A stretch of DNA of 32,000 bases. It comes from Methanopyrus kandleri AV19. GTDB taxonomy: Archaea; JAADCQ01; Methanopyri; Methanopyrales; Methanopyraceae. The notes under the pieces were generated by a model. That model was not told where the DNA came from. It ran no database searches and worked only from the letters and a program-made list of their open reading frames with translations. The translations under genes were made by a program, and so were the position numbers. This document shows, piece by piece, positions 8,736 to 31,385 of this stretch (positions are counted from its first letter, which is position 1; every line of letters begins with the position of its first letter). The stretch lies in the NCBI RefSeq assembly GCF_000007185.1, contig NC_003551.1, positions 799,646 through 831,645 on the forward strand, given 5' to 3'.

Positions 8736-10103
8736 CTACCCCCAAATGCACCTGGCTACGTCCGTGAACGTCACTATCCGGGACACGACCACCCCGTGGC
8801 GCCTCAGCTGCTTCACCATAGAAGGTACGAGATTCACCTCACGATCGACCTCGGCTCCCAGTTCGACCCGGTAGACGCTCCCCATCTTTTTGACGCCGAG
8901 AACTCCCACCACACCGTCAGTCGACTTCAGGGCTTCGGTTAAGTCGCGGGGGGAACCGTACAGGACTCGCAGCTCCAGGATGTACCCGCGAATTTTGCGG
9001 ACCCTCGCTTTGGGAACCTGGAGTTTGACACCGCGCTTCGTTTTCACACAGGCCGTTACGCGGCCGTCGGTGACGCGGATAGAAACCGCTTCCACTCCTG
9101 GAATTCGCGACAGTTCGGCGCGTACCTCCGCGGGGTCCCCGTTCGACACGTCGACCCGGTAGTAATCGTGCTCCGATGCCAGCCCTAGTGTGGAGCGCAG
9201 CGGTTCCGCTACGGGGAGGTGGGGCACGAGCATGCCGAGTAGGCACAACGATACCGCCAGTGTGCTCCTTCGGGTGATCCTGTCGACCGTGGACGGGAGC
9301 AGAGAGGATAGGAAAGCCGTCCAGAGGTACGTCAACGTATGATACGCCGGTAAGTAGAACAGGACTTGGCGGAACGCGTCCAGACCTCCTAACACCCCGA
9401 GCGAGGCTATCGGTGGGGCGACGGTTCTAATCCTCGAAGCTAGGAGTATCGACAGGCCCACGACGGACGGGTTCGCCAGCGGTCCGCCGTCCAAGCACCC
9501 TAGGCAGAGCAGGGACCCGGCGATCGACAAGACGATGGCCTTCTCGGTCCGGTCGGCTCGTAAAGGTACTATCCACGCCAGTACGACGTAAGCTATCGCC
9601 AGCAGGGCGAGTACTGGGAGTGGTACCCACGGTGGTAGCACGAACGACAGGGGTACGCCGCAGTGGAATTCGATCTTAGGCTCACCGAATATTGCCGAAA
9701 TCAGCGCTCCGAGACACGCTTTCACGGCGTGACAGTGGTAAAAGGAGGACGTCTCTGGACGCTCCGTCAGCGTGACTATACAGGTACCTAAGCCCGGGTT
9801 GAACCCGGCTTCATATATCATCAGTAGCTGGAGCGCCGGAGGCACCGCTAGGATGGCTGCCATCAGCGCGTACGTCACCCACGTATCGATTTTCGGGAGG
9901 GGAATGCGTGAACGGTACGGGAGCACGAGGAAAAGCAGGCCGAGGTGTAGGAGGAGCATAACGTCCTTGGCTTCGGTTGACCCCAATATCATCGGGTAGA
10001 GCGCATCGTGTATCCTCCACTTGATCTCGGAGTCGGAGATCAGAACTACGGCGGCCAGTGTGAAACACACGGCTGATAATAGAATCGGCCCACGGACTCT
10101 CAC
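8736..10103 (-). CDS. Polytopic membrane domain fused to two C-terminal alpha/beta domains (uncharacterised; fused paralogue of the 10774-11625 + 10157-10780 gene pair)
   Basis: 455 aa. About 300 aa are hydrophobic and carry YPMILGSTEAKDVMLLLHLGL, HCHAVKACLG and LGCLDGGPLANP. A soluble tail follows (YYRVDVSNGDPAEVRAELSRIPGV...GSVYRVELGAEV...). It ends 6 nt before the metG start. Confidence 0.7.
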   Translation of the reverse strand: MRVRGPILLSAVCFTLAAVVLISDSEIKWRIHDALYPMILGSTEAKDVMLLLHLGLLFLVLPYRSRIPLPKIDTWVTYALMAAILAVPPALQLLMIYEAGFNPGLGTCIVTLTERPETSSFYHCHAVKACLGALISAIFGEPKIEFHCGVPLSFVLPPWVPLPVLALLAIAYVVLAWIVPLRADRTEKAIVLSIAGSLLCLGCLDGGPLANPSVVGLSILLASRIRTVAPPIASLGVLGGLDAFRQVLFYLPAYHTLTYLWTAFLSSLLPSTVDRITRRSTLAVSLCLLGMLVPHLPVAEPLRSTLGLASEHDYYRVDVSNGDPAEVRAELSRIPGVEAVSIRVTDGRVTACVKTKRGVKLQVPKARVRKIRGYILELRVLYGSPRDLTEALKSTDGVVGVLGVKKMGSVYRVELGAEVDREVNLVPSMVKQLRRHGVVVSRIVTFTDVARCIWG

Positions 10104-10156
10104 CGTCGGTTTGCCCGTCGTCCCGTCTTTCCCTATCGCCTATTAACGTTCCCTGG

Positions 10157-10780
10157 TCATAGAACGTATCCCCACTTCACCGGCGTCACGTTGGCGACCC
10201 CCACAGGCTTCAGACCTGCTAGCTTCAGTGCGCCGGTAACCGAGTAAGCCACCGGGTACTCCTCCTCTAACGAGGCGACCTCGAATACGTACACCGACCC
10301 GCGGCGCTCCACTTTGAATATGGCGAGAATCGTCGGGGCACTCGCCACCTTGCGTGCAGCTACACTTGCCGGGATCTTCGGATCCTCTACGGCGACTTCA
10401 ACCACATAAGCGTTCACGGAGTTCAAGAACACTGCCGGAGCTTTTCCGAGTCCCGCTTTCCTTAACGCCTGACTCAGTTCCTGCGCTATATCGTACTTCG
10501 ACACCGGAGTGGGCGCCTTCACTATGATGTACGCGTCACACGATGAAGGTGCTGTCCTGATCCCTCCCACCCTGATCACGTAAGGACACTTGAGCAGTGC
10601 CCGCTTGACATCCCCTGGCTCCACCGATCCCTTGACGTTCGTGATCGCTACGTGATAACACCCGACTCTGGCTCCCTTTGAAGAGATCGACCACTGGTAA
10701 GTTATCACTCCCATCAACGCACCGATAAAGATCGCCGAGATGAGCAGGACGGCTACGATCTTAGTCCTCAACACTACCAC
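10157..10780 (-). CDS. Signal-anchored protein with two alpha/beta (ferredoxin-like pattern) domains; paralogue of the C-terminal part of 8736-10103
   Basis: The ORF opens at 10828. GTG 10780 and GTG 10774 overlap the TAG stop (10774-10776) of the upstream membrane gene, a translational-coupling geometry. One TM helix is followed by CYHVAITNVKGSVEPGDVKRALLKCPYV...RRGSVYVFEVASLEEE. Confidence 0.65.
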   Translation of the reverse strand: MVVLRTKIVAVLLISAIFIGALMGVITYQWSISSKGARVGCYHVAITNVKGSVEPGDVKRALLKCPYVIRVGGIRTAPSSCDAYIIVKAPTPVSKYDIAQELSQALRKAGLGKAPAVFLNSVNAYVVEVAVEDPKIPASVAARKVASAPTILAIFKVERRGSVYVFEVASLEEEYPVAYSVTGALKLAGLKPVGVANVTPVKWGYVL

Positions 10781-11625
10781 CCCTGTCCCCTGGCGATCGC
10801 GGTCATCAGGAGGAGGGCCACCGCCCATACTACGGAGTTAGGAGCTAACGGGGACGTCAGGTACCAGACCACACGGATCGTCGCCTGAAGGAGCATCGGT
10901 GTCAGGCCGATGAGAACGGCGATGATCACGTATCGTCGTACGGGAAGCGGTCCTAACGCCCACACGATGAGCATCCCTAGTCCGATAACCATCGGTTTAC
11001 ACATGAACCCACCATCTACGGCTCCGAGCACTACGAGAAATCCCGCCCATGATAGCAGTAGCGATTCGGCTGCACTCCCGCGCTCGTGGAACACGGCTAA
11101 TGGTGACAGGATGGCTAAGATCACGTAGGATGCGATTACGGCGGCAGTGAAGATCACGGCGGCCCACGTGGGCATGAACTTGGACAAAACGGATCCATAA
11201 TGGTACTTAGTCGGAATCGGACCTATAACGTAGTTCATGACCTTCCCTACGCACGCCTTGAGGGAGTGGGTGTGAGTCAGCGAGGAGGTCTCACCGACCG
11301 ACGACCCCCCGGACACGACGACCAAAGTGCCAGCTTTCAGGCCGTACGGGGTGTTGTATTGCAGTATCATCTGAGCCAGGTAGGGGCTCGTAAGGATCAG
11401 GAGCGCGAGGCATAATATCAATCTCCCCGAAGCGAGGACCTCGATCCATCGGCTCGGTATCGAAGGGGATGACCAGAGCAATAGGCACATCAGCCCGAGG
11501 TGGGCTAGTAGTATAGCTGGTTTGGCCTCCGTGGATCCCGTTAAAAGTGGGTAGAAAAACTTCCTGAAAATCCCGTCGAGAGGCGTATCGGCCAGAATAA
11601 GGGTGGCAGAGATCGAGAGTAACAC
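10774..11625 (-). CDS. Polytopic membrane protein (uncharacterised; paralogue of the N-terminal part of 8736-10103)
   Basis: 283 aa with about 8 hydrophobic segments. It shares YPLLTGSTEAKPAILLAHLGL, HTHSLKACVG, YHYGSVLSKFMPTW and LGAVDGGFMCKP with the 455-aa protein, in the same order. Confidence 0.7.
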   Translation of the reverse strand: MLLSISATLILADTPLDGIFRKFFYPLLTGSTEAKPAILLAHLGLMCLLLWSSPSIPSRWIEVLASGRLILCLALLILTSPYLAQMILQYNTPYGLKAGTLVVVSGGSSVGETSSLTHTHSLKACVGKVMNYVIGPIPTKYHYGSVLSKFMPTWAAVIFTAAVIASYVILAILSPLAVFHERGSAAESLLLSWAGFLVVLGAVDGGFMCKPMVIGLGMLIVWALGPLPVRRYVIIAVLIGLTPMLLQATIRVVWYLTSPLAPNSVVWAVALLLMTAIARGQGW

Positions 11626-11647
11626 GAGCGATGCAGCGAAGTAGAGA

Positions 11648-12619
11648 TTACCCGACTTCGAGGATCTCTTCGACGATCTCCGCGACGGCGCTTCGCCCCC
11701 TTCTTATGAGCCACTCTCCACGTGGCTTGCGGGCCATCTGGACGGCGTCCTCCGCACCGGAGCTTTCGCTTAAGTACATTACCGGTACGCCGGACTCTTC
11801 GGCGATCCAATGGCTCAGGTGTTTGGGATGCACTTCCGACACCTTCACGGCCTTCTTCGCCACCACACAGGCTTCTATCGTGACCCCGAACCCTCCGGCG
11901 AACACTACCGTATCGGCCAGCATCATTACTCCGGGTAAATCCACGAATTCCCGAACGCACTCGAAGCCCTCTGGAGGGCTTACCCTGAACGGCACCACCA
12001 CAGGATCGTGGTCCTCGAGATCGGAGAGCAGTCGTCGGGCTCCTTCCTCCGTGATGTCGCCACCCAAACATACCAGTACGCGACCTTCGTACTCTTCCGG
12101 TACGGGTCCCGGAATACGACCGGATAGGTGGCGGTCCGCTAGGTACTGGGCCAACGGTGCCCCGGAAACCACCTTAGTCTCAACTCCCACCCGTCGTTTG
12201 AGTACCTCCGCCCACTTCTCCGAGAACGGCACCAGCACACGCGTCGCCCATCGGACGGCTTCCACGGGGTTGTACACGTCCATCTCTAAGTGTACGGAGG
12301 GGATCCCTAGCATCCGAGATGCTATCAGAGACTTCCTGGCGTCCCCGGTGTTACCGGATGAAAGTACCACGGAAGCACGCTCCGACGCCAAAGCCCGTAC
12401 CGTCCGTATTAAGTCAACGGAGAACCCTACGTACCCAAGTAATCCTTGTCTCCGTCGGGGCTTTCCTAACTGCTTCGTCTCGATACCTTCCCATTTCAGT
12501 ATCTCGACTCCACGCCCGTGTCCGTATACTGTTACTTCCCACCCTTCCTCCAGGAGTCGCTCCCACACCGGGAGGAGGTTCTTGGCCGGGGACGGTTCTA
12601 CGAGACTGAAAGCTTTCAT
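11648..12619 (-). CDS. GT-B-fold protein (MurG / UDP-GlcNAc 2-epimerase-like, DUF354-type pattern)
   Basis: The ORF opens at 12667. ATG 12619 (MKAFSLVEPSPAKNLLPVWERLLEEGWEV...) lies 4 nt after the hisB stop. It shows a two-Rossmann-lobe pattern: ...VVLSSGNTGDARKSLIASRMLGIPSVHLE... and ...VLVCLGGD...ADTVVFAGGFGVTIEA. The assignment is pattern-level only. Confidence 0.6.
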   Translation of the reverse strand: MKAFSLVEPSPAKNLLPVWERLLEEGWEVTVYGHGRGVEILKWEGIETKQLGKPRRRQGLLGYVGFSVDLIRTVRALASERASVVLSSGNTGDARKSLIASRMLGIPSVHLEMDVYNPVEAVRWATRVLVPFSEKWAEVLKRRVGVETKVVSGAPLAQYLADRHLSGRIPGPVPEEYEGRVLVCLGGDITEEGARRLLSDLEDHDPVVVPFRVSPPEGFECVREFVDLPGVMMLADTVVFAGGFGVTIEACVVAKKAVKVSEVHPKHLSHWIAEESGVPVMYLSESSGAEDAVQMARKPRGEWLIRRGRSAVAEIVEEILEVG

Positions 12620-12623
12620 CCGC

Positions 12624-13229
12624 TCACCCGCGTCGGAGCGTTCCCTTAGTGGATGGCACTCCGTCACCGACGATTTCCTTCGCTGCGCCGAGTGCGCGGC
12701 CTACGGCCTTAAACATGGCTTCGATGGCGTGATGGTCGTTGTCCCACCACCGTACCACCACATGCATGGTTACGCCGGCGTGGTCGCAGAAGCTTTTCCA
12801 GAAGTGCGAGACGTTCTCCGTGGATAATGGAGGAGAACCGATTCTATTGCGTCGGGGTCGGTACCCCTTTAAGACGAAGTAAGGCCTTCCGGAGATATCT
12901 ACAGCACATTCTACTAGCGCTTCATCCATAGGTACCAGTGCCCATGCGATCCGTCGGATACCCTCGCGATCTCCGAGTGCTTCGTTCAAGGCTTTACCCA
13001 GGCATATACCGACGTCCTCGACGGTGTGATGATCGTCGACCTCTAGGTCGCCTCGGGCTTTGATCTCAACATCTATACGTCCGTGAAAGGCGAACTGGTG
13101 CAGGAGGTGGTCGAAAAACGGAAGACCGGTGTCGACCTTAGCGCGACCGGATCCGTCTAGGTTCACGCTCACCTCAACTTCCGTTTCCTTCGTCGTACGC
13201 TTGACATCCGCCGTCCGCACCGAGTTCAC
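12624..13229 (-). CDS. hisB: Imidazoleglycerol-phosphate dehydratase
   Basis: RTTKETEVEVSVNLDGSG...VDTGLPFFDHLLHQFAFHGRIDVEIKARGDLEVDDHHTVEDVGICLG...DNDHHAIEAMFKAVGRAL carries both HisB metal-binding histidine motifs. The ORF opens at 13322. GTG 13229 or GTG 13220 gives the usual length of about 200 aa and removes the overlap with the divergent 13294 gene. Confidence 0.93.
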   Translation of the reverse strand: MNSVRTADVKRTTKETEVEVSVNLDGSGRAKVDTGLPFFDHLLHQFAFHGRIDVEIKARGDLEVDDHHTVEDVGICLGKALNEALGDREGIRRIAWALVPMDEALVECAVDISGRPYFVLKGYRPRRNRIGSPPLSTENVSHFWKSFCDHAGVTMHVVVRWWDNDHHAIEAMFKAVGRALGAAKEIVGDGVPSTKGTLRRG

Positions 13230-13293: not shown

Positions 13294-13638
13294 ATGGAGA
13301 GGACGGTTTCCATCGTCTGCATCGTCCTAGGTGCCGCGTTACTTTGGATGTCTTCCGGTGCTTCTCATCAGGTGGTCGGGGCGAGAGAGTTGCAGTCGAC
13401 CGATGACGGAACATTAGTAAGGGTCAAAGGCGAGGTGCTGCAGGTGAACGTAGTGAGCGACGGCGCGGAAGTTGTCGTTCTAGACGCGGGGGACGGGACG
13501 GTGACCGTGTTCCTCAGTAGGGAAGCCGCAAGTACTTTGGCCCCGACTCCTGGGGAATCGCTGGAAGTGGTAGGAAGAGTTGAAGAGTATCGAGGGCGGA
13601 AGGAAGTCCGTGTGGATTCGCCGGTACGTGCCCGCTAA
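13294..13638 (+). CDS. Signal-anchored OB-fold protein (tRNA_anti/nucleic-acid-binding OB pattern)
   Basis: 114 aa. An N-terminal hydrophobic helix (IVCIVLGAALLWM) is followed by LVRVKGEVLQVNVVSDGAEVVVLDAGDGTVTVFL...GESLEVVGRVEEYRGRKEVRV, a typical five-strand OB layout. Confidence 0.55.
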   Translation: MERTVSIVCIVLGAALLWMSSGASHQVVGARELQSTDDGTLVRVKGEVLQVNVVSDGAEVVVLDAGDGTVTVFLSREAASTLAPTPGESLEVVGRVEEYRGRKEVRVDSPVRAR

Positions 13639-14425
13639 GGCTCTCATCGTCGTGATCATCACGACGTTAACGGTCCCGTATTTCGTGTTCTACGGTAAGC
13701 CGCGCGGTCCCGGGTACCCTACGGAGCTGTACGGATACCGGATCGTACTGGAAGATCCGGCGCTCGCGGTAGTGGACGTGGAACCCAGACGGACCCTGCT
13801 GTTCAGACACACGCTTACGGTGTCCGATGAAGGTTGGTCCGTACATCCTGTCTTCGATATACCTCCCCTGATATTCGTGCGCGCGGAGCGCATGGATACT
13901 CTTGAAACGGTTAAGAGGAACTTGTGGGCGGTTGTACTACAGGAGGGAGCTGGACGGGTGTTCATGCCCGACGAGTTCGTTGAGGGTGGCGTTCCGGGAC
14001 TCATCACAGGCATCGCCGGCCAGGCTTGGGCCTGGAAACATCTGAAATGGGCCAGAGAGTTCGGAGTTATTCACGGGCTACGTCGGTACGCTAAGGAGGT
14101 CGGACCCGAGCGCATTTCCACTGCCATCTTAGAGGAGTATAGGAGAGCACCGTGGCGGGCGATCCTAGATTTCTGTGACATGATGAAGAACAGTGACGTA
14201 GGGAGGTTCCTGCGCTCACGTGGGCTTTCCTTCCGGGATTTCCTCACCAGTAAAGATCCGAAACTAGTAGCGGAGGTCCTAGTCGTGTTGGACCTGGGAA
14301 GGCTCGACGAGCGAGTAGTCGATGAAAGAATACGGTACGTGTTGGATGCGAGGGCTTACCCCATCCCCGAGTCGGAAGAAAAGATCGTGGATAAGGCGGC
14401 GCGTGAGCTGCTTCGTCATGGATGA
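13580..14425 (+). CDS. Hypothetical membrane-anchored protein
   Basis: 281-aa ORF with one N-terminal TM helix (ALIVVIITTLTVPYFVF) and no motif I recognise. The start is uncertain: GTG 13610 or GTG 13628 would shorten the overlap with the preceding OB-fold gene. The 3' end overlaps the convergent tfb by 10 nt. Confidence 0.5.
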   Translation: MKSIEGGRKSVWIRRYVPAKALIVVIITTLTVPYFVFYGKPRGPGYPTELYGYRIVLEDPALAVVDVEPRRTLLFRHTLTVSDEGWSVHPVFDIPPLIFVRAERMDTLETVKRNLWAVVLQEGAGRVFMPDEFVEGGVPGLITGIAGQAWAWKHLKWAREFGVIHGLRRYAKEVGPERISTAILEEYRRAPWRAILDFCDMMKNSDVGRFLRSRGLSFRDFLTSKDPKLVAEVLVVLDLGRLDERVVDERIRYVLDARAYPIPESEEKIVDKAARELLRHG

Positions 14426-17586: not shown

Positions 17587-18303
17587 TTGTACTACATCGG
17601 GCTCGGTGGCTTCGGCTGTCGGTTCTCCACTCACGCCTCAAACGCAGGCCTCGAGGTGATCCTCTGCGCGGGATCCAGAGGAGACCTACTGCGGGTGTCG
17701 GAAGGCGAGAAAATCGAGGTGGCCAGCGGTATCGGGTTCAGTCGGGACTGGCGTAAGGCTTCCGAGGAGCTGCAAGAGCAAGCGGAGACTATCCGTGAGA
17801 CGTTAGAAAGGGTGGGCGCCGAGGAACCCACGGTCCTCGCTTTCGGTCTCGGTGGAGCCGTCGGATACGCTTTAGCGCAGCAGATTCTGAAGGAGCCTCC
17901 GGTGCCTTTCATCGTACTGACCACGGTTCCGGGAGAATCGGAGGATCCTCAGGTGCGTCGCAACGCTGCTGAACAGGTGAAGAGCGTCCTGGGAGTGTCC
18001 ATCAAGCTTCCCGTCCTCTGGGTGGACAACGCGTTAGGTGGGTATGAACGGGTTAACAGGGTACTCGAGAGGACACTCCTCGACCTCCGAGACTTCCTGG
18101 GCGTGCCCGTGGAGGAGCTCCCGAACTTGGCCGGTAACTACGCGTTGTCACCTTCGATATCCGGAGAGAAGGTGACCGGGGACGTCGTCAAGACATCGGC
18201 GGATGAGGTCAGGAAGCTGGTGAAGAGTAGGGAGCCAGAGGAACACGTGGTTCGACGCGAGCGCCGTGGGCCTGACCCGGAGTCGCTGAGAGAATTGTTC
18301 TAA
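17587..18303 (+). CDS. Divergent, truncated FtsZ/tubulin-like GTPase-domain protein (degenerate signature motif)
   Basis: 238 aa, collinear with the FtsZ N-terminal domain. YIGLGGFGCRF aligns with T1 GxGGxGxN. ASGIGFSRDWRKASEE aligns with T3 G.GAGG.P..G..AAEE. VLAFGLGGAVGYALAQ aligns with the T4 signature GLGGGTG(S/T)G. VLTTVPGESEDPQVRRNAAE aligns with T5 vvT.PF.fEG..R...A. LWVDNAL aligns with T6 ipN..L. No T7 loop or C-terminal domain is present. This is pattern-level inference. Confidence 0.55.
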   Translation: MYYIGLGGFGCRFSTHASNAGLEVILCAGSRGDLLRVSEGEKIEVASGIGFSRDWRKASEELQEQAETIRETLERVGAEEPTVLAFGLGGAVGYALAQQILKEPPVPFIVLTTVPGESEDPQVRRNAAEQVKSVLGVSIKLPVLWVDNALGGYERVNRVLERTLLDLRDFLGVPVEELPNLAGNYALSPSISGEKVTGDVVKTSADEVRKLVKSREPEEHVVRRERRGPDPESLRELF

Positions 18304-22878: not shown

Positions 22879-23105
22879 GGGTCAGAGCGCGGGAAGCGCC
22901 GGAGGAATTACTTTCGCTGTTACGTAAGCTCGGGCTCTCAATCGCCCGGACCAAGAGCGGCTACGAGGTTAGGGGCCCCAAATCTCGGTTTCTGAGGGCC
23001 CTTCAACATATACCGCCCAAGATGGCTATTCTGGCCCGCGAGACCGTCGAAGAATTAAGACGGGCAGTCGGGGTGGAAAGGCCCAGGTTATCCTATCGCC
23101 GTTAG
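22875..23105 (+). CDS. Small hypothetical basic protein, translationally coupled to the CBS gene
   Basis: The ORF opens at 22857. GTG 22875 overlaps the CBS TGA stop in a GTGA arrangement. The product is 76 aa (VRVRAREAPEELLSLLRKLGLSIARTKSGYEVRGPKSRF...). No motif recognised. Confidence 0.4.
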   Translation: MRVRAREAPEELLSLLRKLGLSIARTKSGYEVRGPKSRFLRALQHIPPKMAILARETVEELRRAVGVERPRLSYRR

Positions 23106-23986
23106 AACACTATGTACTTGCCACGCAGTATATCTCGGTCTACCACGTATATGCGCTGCTTACCGCCTGAGTTTGATATCCATAGTGCCAAGGTTAAATG
23201 TTTAGATTTTGCATGTTCTGGTAATACCAGCACCATGGCCATTCTATCTCCGAAGTTTACGGTTCGATCGCCAACTTTCTCCTTCCCGGGTCCTAGAAGG
23301 GTTAGCTTTGCGGTTCCTAGTCGGGCAATCAACTGCTCGATTACGAGGCAACCTCTGGCACCCGTGGAGTGTAAGGCGCGCTCGATGCGTTCTTCTATGA
23401 GCGTATGTTTGCCATCACTTACGTTGCACAGTACCTCTCCGACAACTGCGTTGTAACGCACTTTCAGCTTCGGTCCATCCATCAACCGATTACCAAGCTC
23501 ACGGCGTATCGCCCGCTTGATGGCGTTAACGTCGGGCTTTCCGTCGTACGATGCTTGGAACACGAACTTGGACCCTTTAATCACGGTACCCCTGGCGTCC
23601 AGTACCTTATCCTTCAACCGCTCCTCGATTCGTTTTTTCACGTCTTCCGGGTCCGCAGTCAACGGGACTAGAGCGTCCACGACGAAGACCGTGTATCCCT
23701 TGATCTTGACTTTCCTGACGTCTACGTTCTCCACACCACCCGCACTGCTTACGGCACTCTTCACGTCGGATGTCTTAACACCGGGCTTGGGCACGGCTAG
23801 GTATCGGACGACCGACACCTGGTAATCCTTCACTATGCTCGCATCGACCGTCCCTTCGGCCGCCGCTACGGCACTCTGTCCCCCCATCATGAAGGAGGGA
23901 ATCGCGGATAGCACCATCATGGCTGCGAGAAAGATTATTCCGGCGGTGACGATGGATTTTCGGTGTCTTCGAATCCAGCCGAACAA
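23102..23986 (-). CDS. Signal-anchored protein with repeated alpha/beta domains (uncharacterised)
   Basis: 294 aa. An N-terminal TM helix (IVTAGIIFLAAMMVLSAIPSF) is followed by YQVSVVRYLAVPKPGVKTSDVKSAVSSAGGVENVDVRKVKIKGYTVFVVDALVPLTADPEDVKKRIEERL. This has the same beta-alpha-beta-beta-alpha pattern as the first domain of the 10157-10780 protein. It starts 3 nt after the CYTH gene stop. Confidence 0.55.
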   Translation of the reverse strand: MFGWIRRHRKSIVTAGIIFLAAMMVLSAIPSFMMGGQSAVAAAEGTVDASIVKDYQVSVVRYLAVPKPGVKTSDVKSAVSSAGGVENVDVRKVKIKGYTVFVVDALVPLTADPEDVKKRIEERLKDKVLDARGTVIKGSKFVFQASYDGKPDVNAIKRAIRRELGNRLMDGPKLKVRYNAVVGEVLCNVSDGKHTLIEERIERALHSTGARGCLVIEQLIARLGTAKLTLLGPGKEKVGDRTVNFGDRMAMVLVLPEHAKSKHLTLALWISNSGGKQRIYVVDRDILRGKYIVF

Positions 23987-24541: not shown

Positions 24542-25719
24542 TCACCTCCTCTTCAGTTCGATGACTACCTCGGGTTTCAAGAGCTGATACCCCAGGATCG
24601 CTCCCAAAGCGGCCGGGACGGCGCAGTCGATGCCGAACAGCTCGATGACCAGCACAGCGGACGAGATCGGAGCGTTGAACGTCGCAGCCAAGAACGCAGC
24701 GATAGCCGTCGCGGTTCCGGCCGGAGCGGACGGGCCCAACGTTTGACCCAGAAAAGACCCAAAAACGCGCCCACGCACACTGTCGGTGAAACCAAGCCCG
24801 CGGGTGTTTCACTACCGACTGTTAGCGCGGTGGCTACCATTTTGCCCAGGAACGATAGTAGCGCTTCTTCGGCTCCGATGCGGCCTAAGGCGGCCTTCGA
24901 GGCGTAGTCCAACCCCAATCCTACGGCTGTCGGAATAGCGATGCCTACCGACGCTACCCCGAGTCCTGCTAGGAGAGAACGTACGGGTTGACTAGGTACG
25001 GATTCGACGAACAGACGACGGGCTTCCTTGACGCACCGGCTGTACACGTATGCGAGTAACGTCGCCACTACGGCGATCACCAGGAGTTCCGGCAGGTGCT
25101 GTGGGCTGTAGTGATAAGGGGCGTTCCTCACGAGCAAGTAGCGCTTTCCTAAGGTCGAAACGTACACGGAGTATCCGGCAAGACTGGCTATCGTGCTGGG
25201 AAAAAGTACGACGTAGCGGGACCTCACGCGAAGGACCTCGATGGCGAACAGGGCCGCCGCCAGCGGTGCGCACAGAACCCCGGCCACGCCTCCCGAAATT
25301 ACCCCCAGCACGGCCCATTTTCTTTCCATCTCCGACATTCCCAGCTTCGAAGCTACGTAGCCCCCTACGGACGCGCACGCCTGGGCACAAGGTCCTACTT
25401 GACCGCCACTACCTCCCCCGCCGATGACGAGACCCGCGAGTACCAACTTCGCCATCCCTCTGATGGGATTCGCGGGCTCGTTTGGGAACCCCCGGACGAT
25501 GATCTCCATCCCGGTCCCTCGGAGCTCGGGATGTAGTGCCGCTAGGCTGCCGGCCAGCAGCATGAACGCCGGGATAACTAACGGCTCGTTCCCGACGGCC
25601 TTCTCCACCGTGCTTATAATTGAGGAGATGGCGACAGCACACGCTCCGCCGACAACGCCCAACGCCGCGGCCAAAACCGTCCACCGGGCGACGTGAATCA
25701 ACGCCCCCGTCGACGGCAA
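24542..25719 (-). pseudogene. ClC-family chloride channel/transporter gene interrupted by a frameshift at an A5/T5 run (24761-24765)
   Basis: Track ORF 24577-25986 carries the ClC helices (GTGMEI; GGGGSGGQVGPCAQACASVGG corresponding to the GxEGP region; GSETPAGLVSPTVCVGAFLG), then turns into Arg/Ser-rich text. The homologous continuation SFLGQTLGPSAPAGTATAIAAFLAATFNAPISSAVLVIELFG is in the other frame (ORF 24542-24778). The likely start is TTG 25719, preceded by GGAGGTGGA; codons upstream of it are Arg/Pro-rich and antisense to the cupin gene. Confidence 0.75.
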
Positions 25720-25745
25720 CTCTCCACCTCCGGGGGTTCTCGGCG

Positions 25746-26066
25746 GTGTGGACCCTGACGGTAAGTGCTGAGGGGGAACGCGGACCGTGCGGACGCGTGC
25801 GAGAGTTGTACTCAAATGACAAGGTCTCCGTGGCAGAAGTGAGTGTTCGGGGTGAAGGCGAAGAGCATTACCACCGACGCACGTTCGAGGTGTACTACGT
25901 GATCGACGGTCGTGGAAAAGTGGTGCTGAACGGTCGTCCCGTCGACGTGGGACCGGGGGACGTCGTCGCCATCGAACCGGGGACAAGGCATAAGGTGATC
26001 GGCAACCTGAGGATGCTGGTGGTGTGCATCCCCCCGTTCGACCCGGAGGATGTGTACCGGGTATGA
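25746..26066 (+). CDS. Small cupin-domain protein
   Basis: The ORF opens at 25620, where it is Arg/Pro/Thr-rich and antisense to ClC. The cupin core is VSVAEVSVRGEGEEHYHRRTFEVYYVIDGRGKVVLNGRPVDVGPGDVVAIEPGTRHKV. The start is GTG 25746 or GTG 25797. Confidence 0.7.
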   Translation: MWTLTVSAEGERGPCGRVRELYSNDKVSVAEVSVRGEGEEHYHRRTFEVYYVIDGRGKVVLNGRPVDVGPGDVVAIEPGTRHKVIGNLRMLVVCIPPFDPEDVYRV

Positions 26067-26121
26067 TGAGCTAAGCCTACGCCGACCTAGTGGGGAGTGA
26101 GGATACGGGTGAGCTGCCTGA
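26063..26121 (+). ncRNA. Candidate C/D-box sRNA (weak)
   Basis: C box AUGAUGA at 26063-26069, overlapping the cupin stop. A 12-nt spacer leads to D'-like CCGA at 26082-26085. C'-like GUGAGGA lies at 26097-26103. A 14-nt spacer leads to D box CUGA at 26118-26121. The internal boxes are degenerate and the second spacer is long. Confidence 0.25.
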
Positions 26122-26410
26122 CCCACCCCGCGTGTTTATCGAACTGAGGTTAAGAGTTCCCGAAGAGGTACTATCGGCCCTGGATCCGGATTCCGATAAG
26201 TGTTGCGACAGAAGTGGGGACGTTGTCGAGGTATTCGTCGAAGGGTTCGGGGCGGCGAAATACGCCGTCGAGGACGTTCTGCGGTGCGTAAAAGTGGGCA
26301 CCGACACGCTCGAAACCGTCAGGGGGAGCGAGAGTGCAGCCACTGACGAGGAGGAACAAGGACGAGCATCCCGCGGTTCTCGACCCGGATCGAACGATCG
26401 TCCTAGGTGA
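26090..26410 (+). CDS. Small hypothetical acidic protein (first gene of the 26090-29032 operon); possible CitD/MdcC-like carrier protein
   Basis: 106-aa ORF, or 92 aa from GTG 26132. It contains DRSGDVVEVFVEGFGAAKYAVEDVLRCV, reminiscent of the prosthetic-group Ser context of citrate-lyase and malonate-decarboxylase ACPs. It would lack one strand relative to CitD, so function confidence is low. Confidence 0.4.
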   Translation: MGSEDTGELPDPPRVFIELRLRVPEEVLSALDPDSDKCCDRSGDVVEVFVEGFGAAKYAVEDVLRCVKVGTDTLETVRGSESAATDEEEQGRASRGSRPGSNDRPR

Positions 26411-26411
26411 C

Positions 26412-27050
26412 GTGACGGTGTCCCGAGACGCGGTGATAGGACCGGAGGTCAGACTGGGACCGGACGCCGTCGTACGAGGCGCTGTGATATCCGGACGTTG
26501 TGTCGTCTACAATTGTGAGCTCGGACGTTGTGCCGTAGGTCCTAAAACCACGGTCACGGGTGATGTTGGGGACGGAGTTACCATCCACTCGGGTACGATT
26601 CTAGGGCAGCTCCGTGTGAGCGGGGAGATCGAACCACCCGAGGTAGGTGAGGGGGCCTTCTTGGGACCTGGGGTTTCCGTTCTTCCGGGGACGGTCATAG
26701 GTCCGGAGTCCGTCGTGATGCCCGATAGTGTGGTGACCGAGCGCGTACCGCGTCGCGGAGTCGTCAGCGGAAATCCGGCGATGCCCACGGGGATGGTCGT
26801 CGACGCGGAGACGTTGATCCTGGAGTTCGATGGAAAGCGGCTGTTACTCGAAGGGAAACGGGGAACCGCCTTCGACGTCAGGCTGAGCGACGGCGAACTC
26901 GAAATCACCGAAGAGAGCCCCGATAACTTCGGAGCCGTGCTTGAGAAGGACGTAGTGAAGGTGGTTCGCATGGGACACGCGATACCCTTGCCCGCTGAGC
27001 GACCTTTCTCCATCCCCCTGCACGTACTGGAGGTACGAACGAAGGGGTAA
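26412..27050 (+). CDS. Left-handed beta-helix (hexapeptide-repeat) protein, acyltransferase-like, with an extra C-terminal domain of about 80 aa
   Basis: The ORF opens at 26334. GTG 26412 lies 1 nt after the preceding stop. It has successive [LIV]-G-x4 turns: AVIGPEVRLGPDAVVRGAVISGRCVVYNCELGRCAVGPKTTVTGDVGDGVTIHSGTILG...AFLGPGVSVLPGTVIGPESVVMPDSVV...GVVSGNPA. Confidence 0.7.
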   Translation: MTVSRDAVIGPEVRLGPDAVVRGAVISGRCVVYNCELGRCAVGPKTTVTGDVGDGVTIHSGTILGQLRVSGEIEPPEVGEGAFLGPGVSVLPGTVIGPESVVMPDSVVTERVPRRGVVSGNPAMPTGMVVDAETLILEFDGKRLLLEGKRGTAFDVRLSDGELEITEESPDNFGAVLEKDVVKVVRMGHAIPLPAERPFSIPLHVLEVRTKG

Positions 27051-27057
27051 GTGGGCG

Positions 27058-27660
27058 GTGCCGGTCCGCGAGTCACTACTGATAGACACCGATGTGCGCC
27101 GCTCGCTAGTGCTCGGGTCCGTATTGGAGATGTGCGAGGTGGAAAGAGCAGCCGTGTTGGGTACTGTTGCCCAGGGTAAGCGGTTCGAACACGGTGTTTT
27201 CGTGGCCGGGAAGCGGGTACCAGGCGAGGTAATCACGGTAGAGGTGGAAGTCTCAAGGGAAGTCGTACGCTCGGGATCGATGGAAATCGACCTCGATCCC
27301 GCGGATCCGGATCTGGTGGCGGTGGTTGCGGATGTGAGGGCTACTGGACTCATCGCGAACCTCACCGGCTTACGACCGGAGCGCCGAGGATTCCACGCCC
27401 TGTTCGCTTTCTCGGGTGAGTTACCCGCTCGAGTACGGAAGAGGGTGGTAAGCAACCTGGACGTGTTCAGAGAATGTTGTCCGTGTGCCCTATTGGAGAT
27501 CGGTGACGTGAAGCTGAGGTTTCTAGGAGGTCGACAGGTGTTCGATGAAAGGTCCAGACTGTCGTATACGGACGTCCTCGCCGTCAGGGACGGGAAGCCG
27601 ATAGCATCTGCATGGAGGCCGGCGTCCAGAAGCGTCATCTCTAAGTTGGGGGCCAGGTGA
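27058..27660 (+). CDS. Hypothetical protein (operon member, no recognised motif)
   Basis: 200 aa with a GTG start 7 nt after the LbH stop. Composition is coding-like. The antisense track ORFs here are Ser/Thr-rich shadows. Confidence 0.5.
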   Translation: MPVRESLLIDTDVRRSLVLGSVLEMCEVERAAVLGTVAQGKRFEHGVFVAGKRVPGEVITVEVEVSREVVRSGSMEIDLDPADPDLVAVVADVRATGLIANLTGLRPERRGFHALFAFSGELPARVRKRVVSNLDVFRECCPCALLEIGDVKLRFLGGRQVFDERSRLSYTDVLAVRDGKPIASAWRPASRSVISKLGAR

Positions 27661-27666
27661 GGGACC

Positions 27667-28593
27667 GTGGTGGGGACAGTCAGAGAGCTTCCGACGCTGT
27701 TTTGCGAGTCGGTCGCACTGGAGGTACTCTCCGGGCCGAAACCAGGGTTGGTGGATCCCATCTCTCCTAGCTCCCACGAGGACATGGGGCCCCGTGAGTT
27801 CCTCGCGTGCCTTCCGGAGCTTCGAAGGTGTCTCGAGGAGGCCCTAGAGCTGGGGATAGACGGTGAACCCGTAGACGAGTTGATCCGGTCCCTTCCCGCG
27901 TGGAACGTGGACGTGATAACAGCTTCTGGCGGACCTAACTCCGTGCGTGGGATAGTGTTCCTCGGGTCAGTGTACTGCTACTCGGCTGGGCTCGAAAACG
28001 ACCCGTTCCCGTTCGGCCGCATCCGCGTCGTCGGGAGAAGGTGTACGGAGGCCCTCTGGAACCGGTCGGAAACCAAGTGCGGGCGAATCCGGATCAAGGA
28101 GCGATTGGCCGGTGTCTTCGGCGAGGTGGCCTCCGGAATGGCTACGGCTCGGGGGGTATCCTTGCCGGTCCTACGGGCCACGCTGCGGGCGGGAAGGCCC
28201 CTCGAAGAGGCCGTGATACACTCGGTACTGGCCTGCATGTCAACGTTAGAAGACGCCGGGATCCCCCGGAAACTGCGTAATTGGGTGAAACGAAGGGCGT
28301 CGGAAGTTCTACGCGCTGGAGGCCCGTTCACCGAACGGGGTCGCGCGGAGCTGCACAAATTCGTGCACGAGTGCGCCGAACGTGGGGTGAGTCCCGGTGC
28401 CTCGGCCGACGTCACGGTCGTTGGACTCGTCCTCCTACTTGCGAGGTGGGGGAGGGACATCGTATCCCCGTATCGTGATCCTCCGCGGAGGTGGAGTGGC
28501 GGAGCTGTTGAACGGAACTCTCAGGCTTCTGATACGGTCGGACGGAACCCGGGCGGTCGCGTCCGCGGGAGACGAGAAGTTCTTAAAGGCTGA
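27667..28593 (+). CDS. CitG/MdcB-like ATP:dephospho-CoA triphosphoribosyl transferase family protein
   Basis: 308 aa. The family motifs occur in order: LSGPKPGLVDP, SSHEDM, GGPNSVRGIVFLG (compare NTHKGxIF), LAGVFGEVASG (compare GARGE), and GVSPGASADVTVVGL (compare SPGGSADLL). The last 45 aa or so, after LLLARWG, are Arg/Gly-rich run-on that overlaps the next gene. Confidence 0.75.
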   Translation: MVGTVRELPTLFCESVALEVLSGPKPGLVDPISPSSHEDMGPREFLACLPELRRCLEEALELGIDGEPVDELIRSLPAWNVDVITASGGPNSVRGIVFLGSVYCYSAGLENDPFPFGRIRVVGRRCTEALWNRSETKCGRIRIKERLAGVFGEVASGMATARGVSLPVLRATLRAGRPLEEAVIHSVLACMSTLEDAGIPRKLRNWVKRRASEVLRAGGPFTERGRAELHKFVHECAERGVSPGASADVTVVGLVLLLARWGRDIVSPYRDPPRRWSGGAVERNSQASDTVGRNPGGRVRGRREVLKG

Positions 28594-29032
28594 CGAAGCT
28601 GAGGTCCGCAGGGAGTTAACACCCTTCGAAGCTTACCGGAAGATATGCAAGAAACTGGACGCGTCTGTTGTCGAGCCACCCGAAGATGTAGGACATCCCG
28701 TCGATCCTGAGGTGGGATATCGGGTCCTGGAACTCTTGGAGAGCCTGTGGGACTCGGGGTTCAGGCGCTTGGGTGTCTTGGGGACCGTCGGGTGCGGTGC
28801 GCCCCTCCACGACATCGAGGTCGGGAATCCGGTCGGGTGGACTAGCGTTCGGGTCTCGAACCCAGGCTCAGATCTCGACCTCGTGGCCCCCCACCGAGAT
28901 TACTTATTGGAGATGTCACTGTCTGGTTTCGAAACTGTAAAGCGTTTCGCGGACCGTGTGATAATGTCTCCCGCGGCATTCACTGGGTTTACAGTTCCCA
29001 GAGTCGAAGTCCGGTTACCCAGGGGGTGTTAA
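28475..29032 (+). CDS. Putative pol-beta-type nucleotidyltransferase, MdcG/CitX-like (phosphoribosyl-dephospho-CoA transferase-like)
   Basis: The ORF opens at 28397, and GTG 28475 follows [29 protein letters not shown]...[14 protein letters not shown] resembles the MdcG pattern G-V-T-G-S-x-G ... SDLDLL. This is a pattern-level inference. Confidence 0.5.
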
Positions 29033-29033
29033 C

Positions 29034-30503
29034 TTGACGGAAAAACTTGACAGTGTGTTACCCAAAACCTCACAAGGTTCGAACTTGAACGATCTGAAGA
29101 ACCTCCGCGATGCGCTGGATAAGTTTTCCGAGATCGAGCCGGATCTGGACGTCGAGTCGCTGAAAGCTACGCTGGACGATCTGATCACGCTCATGGAAGA
29201 AACAGGCGTGAAAGACGTGAGGGATCTCTGCGAGAAGTTTCTGGACTTCAAGCGTGAAAAGGAGCGGTTGGAAGAGCTCCTCAAGGAGTACTTCAAGCGG
29301 TTGGAGGAGTTGGAGCGGAAGCTGCGAGCCCACGAGGAGAAGCTTCGCATCGAGGCCCGTCGTCGTAAGACTCTGGAGAAGGAGTTGGAGATGGAGCGCG
29401 ACGAGAAGGCCGAGCTGCGGGAGGAGCTACGGCGTAAAGAAGTCATGATCGAGAAGCTCCGTAGCGACCTGCAGCGGATGAAGAAGCCCCCGCTCATCGT
29501 GGGTACCGTCGAAGAGATCCTCGACGACGGTCGCGTGATAGTGAAGAGTTCCACGGGTCCGAAGTTCGTCTCGAACGTGAGCCCGACCGTAGACAGAAAC
29601 GAGCTCGAGCCGGGTGCTAACGTGGCCCTCAACCAGCAGAGCATGGCCGTGGTGGACGTGTTACCGTCGGAGAAAGACTCACGTGTACTGGCGATGGAGG
29701 TGGACGAGTCACCCGATGTGTCGTACGACGATATCGGCGGTCTGGACGAGCAGATCCGCGAGATCCGAGAAGTCGTGGAGAAGCCGCTCAAGGAGCCCGA
29801 GCTGTTCGAGAAGGTCGGTGTCGAACCGCCGAAGGGTGTCCTACTGTACGGTCCACCGGGCACCGGTAAGACCCTGCTGGCCAAAGCCGTGGCGAACCAC
29901 GCCGACGCCACCTTCATCCGGCTCGCCGCGCCGGAATTGGTCCAGAAGTTCATCGGCGAAGGTGCTAGACTGGTGCGGGAGCTGTTCGAACTCGCACGCG
30001 AGAAGGCTCCGAGTATTATCTTCATCGACGAGATCGACGCGATCGGTGCCCGGCGAATGCGGGACGCGACGAGCGGAGACCGCGAGGTCCAGCGCACGCT
30101 CACCCAGCTGCTCGCGGAGATGGACGGCTTCGATCCGCTCGACGACATCAAGGTCATCGCGGCCACGAACCGGAAGGACATCCTGGACCCGGCCTTGCTG
30201 CGACCGGGTCGGTTCGACAGGCACATTAAGATCCCGCTACCGGACGAGGAGGGCCGGTACGAGATCTTCAAGATCCACACGCGCGACATGAACTTGGCCG
30301 AGGACGTCGATCTCCAGAAGCTGGCGAAGATCACCGAGGGTGCCTCAGGTGCGGACATCAAGGCCATATGTACCGAGGCTGGTATGATGGCTATACGCGA
30401 GGACCGTGACATTGTCACCATGGATGACTTCCTGAAGGCCGTGGACAGGGTCATGGGTAAGAAGGAAGAAGAGAGCGGAGAGTTCAAGCGCGCGTACCAC
30501 TGA
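29034..30503 (+). CDS. pan: Proteasome-activating nucleotidase (PAN, AAA+ ATPase)
   Basis: Long N-terminal coiled coil, OB domain ([31 protein letters not shown]), Walker [16 protein letters not shown], Walker [10 protein letters not shown], second region of homology, and C-terminal ...FKRAYH. The TTG start lies 1 nt after the upstream stop. ATG 29193 (M54) would give a more typical protein of about 436 aa. Confidence 0.95.
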
Positions 30504-30544
30504 TGCGGACTCCCCGACCTTCCACCAACAATCCCCTCCCCAGG

Positions 30545-30600
30545 ATGACGAGGCGGTTGCTGGCGGACCCGACAGGGATGATGAATAGTGGGCGAGCGGA
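30545..30600 (+). ncRNA. Candidate C/D-box sRNA with non-canonical CGGA D boxes
   Basis: C-like AUGACGA at 30545-30551, an exact 12-nt spacer, and CGGA at 30564-30567. After a 10-nt loop, C' AUGAUGA lies at 30578-30584, followed by an exact 12-nt spacer and CGGA at 30597-30600. It sits in the 84-nt PAN/GNAT intergenic gap and overlaps the GNAT GTG start by 13 nt. Confidence 0.3.
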
Positions 30601-31385
30601 CTGTTGCGCATTACGGTCCTTACGTCGTTAAGGAGATCAGAACGAACCAGGACAACCTGGACGCGATCCGTTCGTTACTGAAGTCCGCCGAGCGCCGTGG
30701 TCCTGGAAACGTGGGAGAAGTGGTTCCTCTCGATGTCTTCGACACGGACCGTGGGCTAGCCTCCGATCGCACCAGGCTGCTGGTGGCTCTACGGGAGGAC
30801 GAGATCGTCGCTTGCGTCGCCGCGGATCCTCGGGAACGCATAGGTTCCGGTCCCAATCCCCACAACGTCTTCGGCCTCGTAGTGTCTCCGGAGGTGCGCG
30901 CCAGGTACCAGTTGGGACACGTCATGATCGCCGCCGCCCTGAAAACGCTCCGGGAAGAAGGTCTGAAGGTCGCACGAACCACTCCAATCAGACGCGCCTT
31001 ACCGTTCTTCACGGGTATCCGCGCCGATCCCACTCATGTGTACCGGGAACTCGAGGTGAGGCTAAGGTGGTATCGTAGGACTGGGAGTGAGGAGTACTTG
31101 GAGCTAACCAGGGTACCGAGAGAGGTCCGTGAAGAGCTGGAGCTACTTCGAATTCGTACGGTGAACGCTCGGAGGGACCCTACACCGTTTCACCGGTTGG
31201 ATCCGGAGAAGCCCGTGCACGTTTTCAGGTCGGGTGTCCGCTCGTTCACCCTCATAGCATCGCTGGGGGACGGGGATCATGGTCGACGTCAGCGTGATAT
31301 TGCCCACGTACAACGAGCGCGAGAACCTTCCAAGGGTGATTCCCAAGATCGAGGAGGTAGTGGAGGAAGAAGGCTGGACCGCTGA
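30588..31385 (+). CDS. GNAT-family acetyltransferase-like protein with C-terminal extension
   Basis: 265 aa. GNAT-like beta1-alpha1 (YVVKEIRTNQDNLDAIRSLL), LLVALREDEIVACVAA, and a motif-A-like LVVSPEVRARYQLGHVMIAAALKTLREEG. The last 35 codons overlap the GT2 gene out of frame and are Arg/Gly-rich. Confidence 0.6.
   Translation: MGERTVAHYGPYVVKEIRTNQDNLDAIRSLLKSAERRGPGNVGEVVPLDVFDTDRGLASDRTRLLVALREDEIVACVAADPRERIGSGPNPHNVFGLVVSPEVRARYQLGHVMIAAALKTLREEGLKVARTTPIRRALPFFTGIRADPTHVYRELEVRLRWYRRTGSEEYLELTRVPREVREELELLRIRTVNARRDPTPFHRLDPEKPVHVFRSGVRSFTLIASLGDGDHGRRQRDIAHVQRAREPSKGDSQDRGGSGGRRLDR

Follow-up and report, generated by a model that had tools for sequence, protein, structure and literature searches.

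An overlapping CitG-family and MdcG-like gene pair in Methanopyrus kandleri, with a speculative link to methanopterin synthesis

The 32-kb window of Methanopyrus kandleri AV19 considered here (the window being the whole stretch of DNA that was analyzed, in whose coordinates all positions are given) contains a set of five open reading frames (ORFs), ORF1 to ORF5, at about 26090-29032 on the + strand. Our principal finding concerns the last two, ORF4 and ORF5, which we tentatively, and with somewhat less than even confidence, interpret as a two-enzyme module that combines a CitG/MdcB protein with an MdcG-type partner and is retained in Methanopyrales as an overlapping pair; methanopterin as the target of this module is speculative. 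The orphan CitG gene is real and is part of a known puzzle common to other methanogens, in that methanogens and methylotrophs carry CitG homologues without a known enzyme to serve. The new element is the conserved, overlapping, MdcG-like partner gene, ORF5. The two genes are:

27667..28593, + strand: ORF4, homologue of the CitG-family ATP-dependent triphosphoribosyl transferases (Pfam PF01874)
28475..29032, + strand: ORF5, Methanopyrales-restricted protein of 185 aa, the C-terminal part of which is nucleotidyltransferase-like

ORF4 and the overlapping ORF5

An initial annotation of this DNA had described ORF4 as CitG-like, and this description was borne out by a strong match to PF01874 (E=2e-37, 129.8 bits against a 27-bit cut-off) that covered residues 11-256 of the protein and positions 3-283 of the 284 in the model. 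The motif series was intact and in the order reported, namely GPKPGLVD, HEDM, NSVRGIVFLG, GVFGE, and SPGASAD. It aligned with that of bacterial MdcB-like proteins (PKPGLVD, H.D, GG.N..[KR]G, G..GE, SPG.SAD), with VRG replacing HKG, FGE or LGE replacing RGE, and the relatives of 50% identity reading KPAAAAD. CitG and MdcB in the strict sense are ATP:dephospho-coenzyme A (CoA) triphosphoribosyl transferases. ORF4 fell below every NCBIfam equivalog cut-off, including those for MdcB (TIGR03132, 98 versus 282 bits) and CitG (TIGR03125, 78 versus 272 bits), as well as NF002315 (73 versus 280 bits) and NF007503 (54 versus 477 bits). In a protein word-index search, ORF4 was 93% identical to a 'triphosphoribosyl-dephospho-CoA synthase [Methanopyrus sp.]', and that search recovered only Methanopyrales proteins plus bacterial CitG and CitXG. 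Beyond Methanopyrales, ORF4 came closest, with 24-30% identity, to MdcB-like proteins and CitX-CitG fusions of bacteria. We found no solved structure for the CitG family.

Comparisons were made with three diverged Methanopyrales lineages, represented by L002 (JGI metagenome), by L003 and L004 (NCBI assemblies), and by L005 (NCBI assembly), in which the CitG proteins were 66%, 50%, and 51% identical to ORF4. All five ORFs were conserved at the protein level in these lineages (tblastn, 36-66% identity), with ranges of 36-53% for ORF1, 53-65% for ORF2, 42-56% for ORF3, 50-66% for ORF4, and 52-60% for ORF5. Differences at codon positions 1/2/3 numbered 147/141/221 in the core of ORF1, 465/362/804 in ORF2, 506/393/728 in ORF3, 640/443/860 in ORF4, and 365/258/595 in ORF5. 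This excess at third positions, together with conservation in the relatives, indicates that ORF1 to ORF5 are protein-coding, and the presence of five co-directional ORFs was thus upheld. ORF1 and ORF5 were missed by automatic gene callers on some contigs.

The start of ORF5 had been placed at 28475, inside the tail of ORF4, and in all four lineages (the window and the three relatives) we indeed found GTG or TTG at exactly this position, in the context RI[V/L]IL. ORF4 and ORF5 overlap by 119 nt, within which differences at the codon positions of the ORF5 frame were 70/49/130; the third-position excess in this frame and the conserved start codon indicate that ORF5 is a real gene. The constrained part of ORF4, on the other hand, ended near 28480. 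Its last ~40 codons were unconstrained, with codon-position differences of 88/57/45, as against 537/379/799 upstream. This reversed pattern indicates that the functional CitG protein stops near 28480 and that the last ~40 codons are, as judged from the substitutions, a tolerated read-through tail.

Around the ORF5 start, at 28465-28482, the stretch TCCCCGTATC[G/T]TGATCCT was invariant in the four lineages, the proteins of which are only about 50% identical. Within it lies GTGATCC, which forms part of the extended Shine-Dalgarno complement. The stretch could serve to initiate translation internally or to shift the reading frame, or it could simply reflect a dual coding constraint.

ORF5 compared with MdcG and CitX

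ORF5 shared 97% identity with a hypothetical Methanopyrus kandleri protein, and a word-index search recovered four proteins, all of the Methanopyrus type. It had been proposed to have the layout of MdcG-type transferases on account of a motif ending in GSDLDLV, which is present as claimed. The proposal is plausible though weakly supported: the catalytic motif and a profile comparison spoke for MdcG, whereas Pfam and hidden Markov model (HMM) searches gave no significant match and CitX showed no similarity. Three elements were kept in all orthologues, namely GV(L/T)GTVGC (residues 100-107), SD(L/I/V)DL (132-136), and an invariant D160.

For the profile comparisons, sets were drawn from annotated operons and comprised 12 MdcG and 56 MdcC sequences (plasmid mdc operons) alongside 80 CitX and 47 CitD sequences (citrate lyase loci and CitXG fusions). 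Four local proteins were compared by hhalign with 12 families, giving a panel of 48 comparisons, in which ORF5 with MdcG (12 sequences) reached a probability of 44-46% (P=2.4e-4) over a core of 19-23 columns. This was the only pair in the panel with P<0.009 and its sole outlier (Bonferroni about 0.01), and the core corresponded to the SDLDL strand, the catalytic motif. Under relaxed settings the hhalign alignment extended colinearly from the helix that precedes GVxG, by way of the GVxGxVG turn and SDLDL, as far as D160 near the RLD motif of MdcG. One MdcG subfamily reads WGVTGAVGF...SDIDLL where the L002 orthologue of ORF5 reads LGVTGTVGC...SDLDLI. The pattern G[VPYIL]xG[STAG]xG-x(8-35)-SD[LI]D[LIV][LIVW], which was written post hoc, after both families had been seen, matched five of the 6837 bacterial control ORFs, all of them MdcG, and in the six-frame translation of the window it matched ORF5 only.

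At the level of family models the likeness was slighter. The window ORF5 had no Pfam or NCBIfam match, and the only Pfam family to touch any orthologue was MdcG itself (its C-terminal domain, PF10620; orthologue P0038, E=0.22, 11.9 bits versus a 26.5-bit cut-off). Members of the ORF5 family scored 2-8 bits against our home-made MdcG HMM (13-sequence test set). Unlike MdcG, ORF5 lacked a recognizable MdcG N-terminal domain (PF20866), carried a 12-residue insertion between the motifs, and was not HMM-detectable. Against CitX (PF03802 and the 80-sequence alignment) hhalign gave 0.3%. Residues 1-76 of ORF5 (28475-28700) instead held a nearly invariant segment, EPPEDxGHPVDPExGYR, located just before the nucleotidyltransferase-like domain; it did not match MdcG and is a putative substrate-binding element.

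In the second of two AlphaFold2 (AF2) models, the order of elements in the C-terminal part was helix, strand, (loop), strand, helix, strand, strand. Predicted local distance difference test (pLDDT) values of this model, taken per 10-residue block, were 66-87 at residues ~81-100 and ~131-180, and fell below 50 at residues 104-108 and 114-132. The top 50 Foldseek matches in the PDB were mostly nucleotidyltransferases of the Pol-beta type, with probabilities up to 0.90, and included poly(A) polymerase (0.89), ANT(2'')-Ia (0.90), PolX, Pol beta, GLD-2, Cid1, and the CCA-adding enzyme. The predicted alpha-beta-alpha-beta-alpha-beta-beta core, G[ST], DxD, and third carboxylate of ORF5 matched those of enzymes such as ANT(2'')-Ia (PDB 4wqk; Foldseek probabilities 0.87-0.90). 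Set against this likeness, E-values were non-significant, TM-scores were about 0.3, ORF5 had no match to NTP_transf_2 or related Pfam families, and it possesses the extra conserved N-terminal region. In our view ORF5 very probably carries an active site of the nucleotidyltransferase type, as predicted from these comparisons, and a distant relationship to MdcG, by descent or by analogy, is plausible.

Possible chemistry and alternative explanations

Enzymes of the CitG type expel the adenine of ATP to give an alpha-linked 5-triphosphoribosyl adduct, while in MdcG and CitX a hydroxyl attacks the alpha-phosphate and pyrophosphate is released. To our knowledge, CitG chemistry is established in only three enzyme systems. 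If ORF4 and ORF5 act in succession, ORF4 would, as its family membership suggests, use ATP as ribosyl donor, expel adenine, and place an alpha-linked 5-triphosphoribosyl group on a substrate hydroxyl. ORF5, viewed as a divergent protein of the Pol-beta-type nucleotidyltransferase fold with three invariant carboxylates, would then move the phosphoribosyl adduct onto a second hydroxyl with release of pyrophosphate, like MdcG and CitX, a step suggested by the motif, the weak profile match, the weak fold match, and the gene overlap. The product would be an X-O-(alpha-ribosyl)-5-phospho-O-Y linkage, in which the classical systems have dephospho-CoA as X and the carrier-protein serine as Y. The acceptor envisaged here would be neither a carrier of the CitD/MdcC type nor the ORF1 serine proposed earlier.

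In methanopterin, an alpha-ribofuranosyl-5-phosphate joins ribitol to 2-hydroxyglutarate through a phosphodiester, and we know of no enzymes assigned to the building of this tail. The alpha glycosidic bond of CitG products arises by inversion of ATP and so suits the alpha-ribosyl link of methanopterin. Ribosyl transfer in the building of this side chain had been raised as an alternative in the initial annotation. Because the bond pattern of the tail is the one expected if an MdcG-type step came after a CitG step, the methanopterin side chain (X being the ribitol 5-OH and Y the hydroxyglutarate 2-OH) is a speculative target and, by analogy, a more attractive guess than a carrier system. Specifically, ORF4 might transfer the 5-triphosphoribosyl group of ATP, with alpha inversion, to the 5-OH of the aminophenyl-ribitol intermediate, and ORF5 might join the 2-OH of (S)-2-hydroxyglutarate to the alpha-phosphate with release of pyrophosphate. 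We regard this assignment, in which the pair would carry out the two unassigned late steps of methanopterin side-chain synthesis as a small-molecule version of CitG/CitX chemistry, as unlikely. Were the link true, it would be of high interest, with the pair making the tail pattern of an alpha-ribosyl and then a 5-phosphodiester to a hydroxyl.

Dephospho-tetrahydromethanopterin lacks the phosphate-hydroxyglutarate end, so that only the first (CitG) step would be needed for it. This is the form used by Methylorubrum (PMC8153426). CitG homologues (orf7) lie in tetrahydromethanopterin (H4MPT) gene islands of methylotrophs, in one case in the order mch-orf5-orf7-fae (PMC3615186) and in another with mch, a glutamate ligase, triphosphoribosyl-dephospho-CoA synthase, and an aldehyde-activating protein of the Fae type (PMC11533326), and Methanobacterium formicicum carries an orphan CitG gene (PMC7386643). 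Methylotroph Orf7 and the methanogen orphan CitG resemble ORF4 in being CitG-family proteins of (dephospho-)tetrahydromethanopterin users that occur outside any citrate lyase context, a likeness at the family level. Their surroundings differ: Orf7 neighbors mch, an ATP-grasp ligase, and fae, whereas ORF4 neighbors a left-handed beta-helix (LbH) protein, two orphans, and the nucleotidyltransferase-like gene. In the literature, we found no paper that established the biochemical role of Orf7, nor one on CitG/COG1767 with methanopterin that assigned a biochemical role.

Several observations weigh against this interpretation of ORF4 and ORF5, with or without methanopterin. A HMMER profile of ORF5 found no homologues outside Methanopyrales among 1.84 billion representative proteins, its matches being three true relatives and one spurious repeat protein, and such absence elsewhere is odd for a step needed by every methanopterin user. 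The ORF4/ORF5 pair was conserved only among genomes in which the whole region is syntenic, and ORF4 scored higher on the MdcB model (98 bits) than on NF002315 (73 bits). The ORF5 HMM showed no enrichment of MdcG among the 6837 ORFs, and reciprocally the MdcG HMM failed to single out ORF5, which was not among its top three window ORFs. Both AF2 models of ORF5 were of low confidence (pLDDT 50 and 52), with the active-site loop below 50; every Foldseek E-value for the ORF5 model lay above 0.05, and E. coli CitX (PDB 7dcm) was absent from the top 50.

The alternatives draw on the neighboring features, which are:

25746..26066, + strand: cupin-domain gene (Pfam Cupin_2, E=4e-15), called as a 106-aa gene in L001; context
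26059..26123, + strand: candidate C/D box small RNA (sRNA), from box layout, conservation, and sub-threshold Rfam matches; outside the CitG module
26132..26410, + strand: ORF1, small fast-evolving protein with a conserved core at about 26141-26330
26334..27050, + strand: ORF2, LbH (hexapeptide-repeat) acyltransferase-like protein (Pfam Hexapep PF00132, E=5e-13)
27058..27660, + strand: ORF3, lineage-specific protein of 200 aa
29034..30503, + strand: proteasome-activating nucleotidase (PAN; TIGR01242, E=1.7e-186), 1 nt downstream of ORF5; context

A fairly unlikely alternative, though the likeliest of the rivals, is that there is no module: the genes would be co-directional housekeeping neighbors, ORF4 would act alone, as orphan CitG homologues may in other methanogens, and ORF5 would be unrelated, its G..SDLDL motif being generic or a product of chance. 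All convincing genes at 25746-31385 lie on the + strand, in the order cupin, ORF1 to ORF5, PAN, and one further ORF, and the cupin gene, the likely C/D box sRNA, and PAN stand in this string with equally small gaps. As about 6 kb on either side of the locus was syntenic in every relative found, such packing is uninformative on shared function, and the description of the five ORFs as an operon, for which packing was the sole basis offered, cannot stand on that basis. Additionally, ORF1, ORF2, ORF3, and ORF5 lacked recognizable homologues beyond Methanopyrales, the MdcG tests were negative at the HMM level, and SD[LI]DL motifs are common to many nucleotidyltransferase families. What speaks for a connection between ORF4 and ORF5 is that, among the junctions, only their overlap is special, the 119 nt with a conserved start codon being tighter than any other; that the sole non-random signal of the panel linked ORF5 to MdcG, a family expected beside CitG; and that the GVxGxVG part has its counterpart in one MdcG subfamily, not in generic nucleotidyltransferases.

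We consider it improbable that the locus encodes an undescribed carrier-protein prosthetic-group system, as proposed in the initial annotation, in which ORF4 would make 2'-(5''-triphosphoribosyl)-3'-dephospho-CoA, ORF5 would attach it to a local serine (in ORF1, ORF3, or another protein), and ORF2 would load or use the thiol. A CitG protein, an MdcG-like motif, and an LbH protein of the acyl-CoA type would form a coherent CoA theme, ORF4 scores slightly better with the models for MdcB and CitG than with NF002315, and the bacterial loci always pair such enzymes with a small carrier protein. Among known systems, ORF4 and ORF5 come closest to MdcB with MdcG, and to CitG with CitX, in the shared Pfam family and conserved motifs of ORF4 and, for MdcG, in the GVxGxVG...SDLDL motif and third acidic residue of ORF5 and in gene adjacency as in bacterial operons. 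In favor of the two-enzyme module in general, CitG was fused to CitX or adjoined CitX or MdcG in the bacterial loci surveyed. The window locus differs from these in having neither an acyl carrier protein (MdcC or CitD) nor lyase or decarboxylase subunits, and the host here is a hydrogenotrophic methanogen. The reported absence of citrate lyase and malonate decarboxylase genes nearby was confirmed by a Pfam scan of the large ORFs throughout the 32 kb, and home-made profiles of CitC/D/E/F/X and MdcA/C/D/E/G/H run against 432 six-frame ORFs of the window gave nothing better than E=0.059. A scan of genome contigs for CitG homologues yielded at least 80 loci, all bacterial among the matches listed, and among plasmid loci we found no CitG of an H4MPT island, the two that were inspected being mdc operons.

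No local protein resembled the carrier that such a system would require. The serine proposed as the attachment site in ORF1, within DRSGDVVEV, occurs in the window genome only; the three orthologues read VRDRTIRI, IRGRTVKI, and VEGNRVTI, so that SGD is replaced by DRT, GRT, and GNR. Nor did ORF1 resemble CitD (47 sequences) or MdcC (56 sequences), for which hhalign probabilities were 0.3% and 1.4%, and hmmsearch against the carrier families gave at most 2.2 bits (best E=0.14, 13-sequence test set), so that its description as a CitD/MdcC-like carrier was not sustained. In favor of a carrier role, ORF1 has a single invariant serine, in L.PDSD; it is unrelated to the proposed SGD site and is the sole remaining candidate for a modification site in ORF1, on account of its invariance. 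ORF3 and the C-terminal domain of ORF2 likewise lacked profile similarity to carrier families (hhalign), and the ORF3 position weakly aligned to the MdcC serine varied among the four lineages (Q, H, R, or S). Furthermore, ORF1 to ORF3 are tied to ORF4/ORF5 by general synteny alone, and the three may or may not belong to the same module as this pair. If a protein were modified after all, this would bring the carrier systems based on phosphoribosyl-dephospho-CoA to four kinds and would be the first archaeal case.

Very improbable, finally, is an ORF4-ORF5 fusion made by programmed +1 ribosomal frameshifting near 28463-28475, mirroring CitX-CitG with the domains reversed. In its favor, TCCCCGTATC[G/T]TGATCCT is invariant even where changes would be synonymous in the ORF4 frame, the reading frame of ORF5 stays open upstream of its start with the residues PRI conserved there, no good Shine-Dalgarno motif lies 5-10 nt upstream of 28475, and CitX-CitG fusions are common in bacteria. 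Against it, the GTG/TTG start codon is conserved at its exact position, we saw no slippery or shift-prone site of a known type, dual coding (for SPYRDP and, in the other frame, (M)IL) can account for the local conservation, and the protein models in databases are all separate. To return to the two-enzyme interpretation of ORF4 and ORF5, if ORF5 is truly the second-step transferase, Methanopyrales would give a compact two-gene handle on orphan CitG function.

Neighboring genes and other features of the window

Upstream of ORF1, the candidate C/D box sRNA on the + strand consists of the following boxes:

26063-26069: box C, ATGATGA
26082-26085: box D', CCGA
26097-26103: box C', GTGAGGA
26118-26121: box D, CTGA

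Box C is separated from D' by 12 nt and C' from D by 14 nt, with a spacer between D' and C'. The longest invariant nucleotide runs of the 3.3-kb region from the cupin gene to ORF5 (14, 8, and 8 nt in the four lineages) fell within 26059-26123, and the guide regions were invariant across these lineages. Matches of this segment in Rfam were to six families of archaeal C/D sRNA only, all of them sub-threshold (sR7 E=0.045, sR60 E=0.098; 18.8 bits against a gathering score of 37). The layout and conservation make it likely that 26059-26123 is a C/D box sRNA gene. Its first guide is similar to that of Pyrococcus sR60, and the stop codon of the cupin gene falls within box C.

The start of ORF1 had been placed at 26090, which lies inside this conserved candidate sRNA, and for that reason GTG at 26132 is probably the actual start. 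Invariant residues of ORF1 follow the pattern L.PDSD..C...G.G.aK.A.DDVLRC across the core, while the tail beyond 26334 was not conserved as coding, the L004 orthologue having stop codons there and ending before the tail. ORF1 had no Pfam match. A similarity to the KEOPS subunit Pcc1, suspected from L.PD...LR, was rejected after hhalign against the Pcc1 sequences in the PDB gave 0.5%.

Three of the reported junctions, 27050/27058, 27660/27667, and 29032/29034, were correct. The fourth, 26410/26412, was not, as ORF2 begins further upstream: its N-terminal sequence PLTRRNKD(E/Q)HPAV was invariant in all lineages, which places the start at GTG 26334 or earlier, not at 26412, and ORF2 thereby overlaps the ORF1 tail by 77 nt. 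The Hexapep match of ORF2 comprised three repeat stretches (48.5 bits against a gathering score of 27 bits); among NCBIfam subfamilies no specific one was reached, with generic sub-threshold matches only, and recognizable homologues were found only in Methanopyrales. The C-terminal domain, beta-rich and of about 85 aa, had no conserved serine, and a family search with it gave only a sub-threshold Ig-like hint.

In the case of ORF3, there was no match in Pfam, NCBIfam, or PADLOC, the defense-system models of the last giving zero matches among all five proteins. Its first ~60 aa were weakly beta-helix-like (17% by hhalign against the helix of ORF2). ORF3 also carries an invariant NLD(V/L)FRECCPCA motif in addition to Cys26, and the FRECCPCA cysteines together with Cys26 suggest a putative metal or iron-sulfur site.

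The remainder of the window is a housekeeping mix that includes the ribosomal proteins L22 and S3, methionyl-tRNA synthetase, HisB, TFB, ArgJ, a CYTH protein, a chloride channel, and several orphans. On the - strand, a 358-aa ORF at 501-1577 partially matched the anhydro-MurNAc kinase family (AnmK, E=1e-11), which is unexpected for a methanogen, and this ORF overlaps a + strand ORF of 323 aa without a family match. Long ORFs of 223-455 aa without a Pfam family at E<=0.001 lie at 8736-12827, 13580-14425, 17587-18303, and 23102-23986, and these are probably Methanopyrus-specific proteins. Two long ORFs overlap on opposite strands, at 11631-12827 (+) and 11648-12667 (-). Finally, the sole strongly AT-rich element within 25400-28577 is CTTATAATT at 25611-25625, a possible TATA box, serving either the divergent chloride-channel gene or transcription from the cupin gene onward through ORF4/ORF5.

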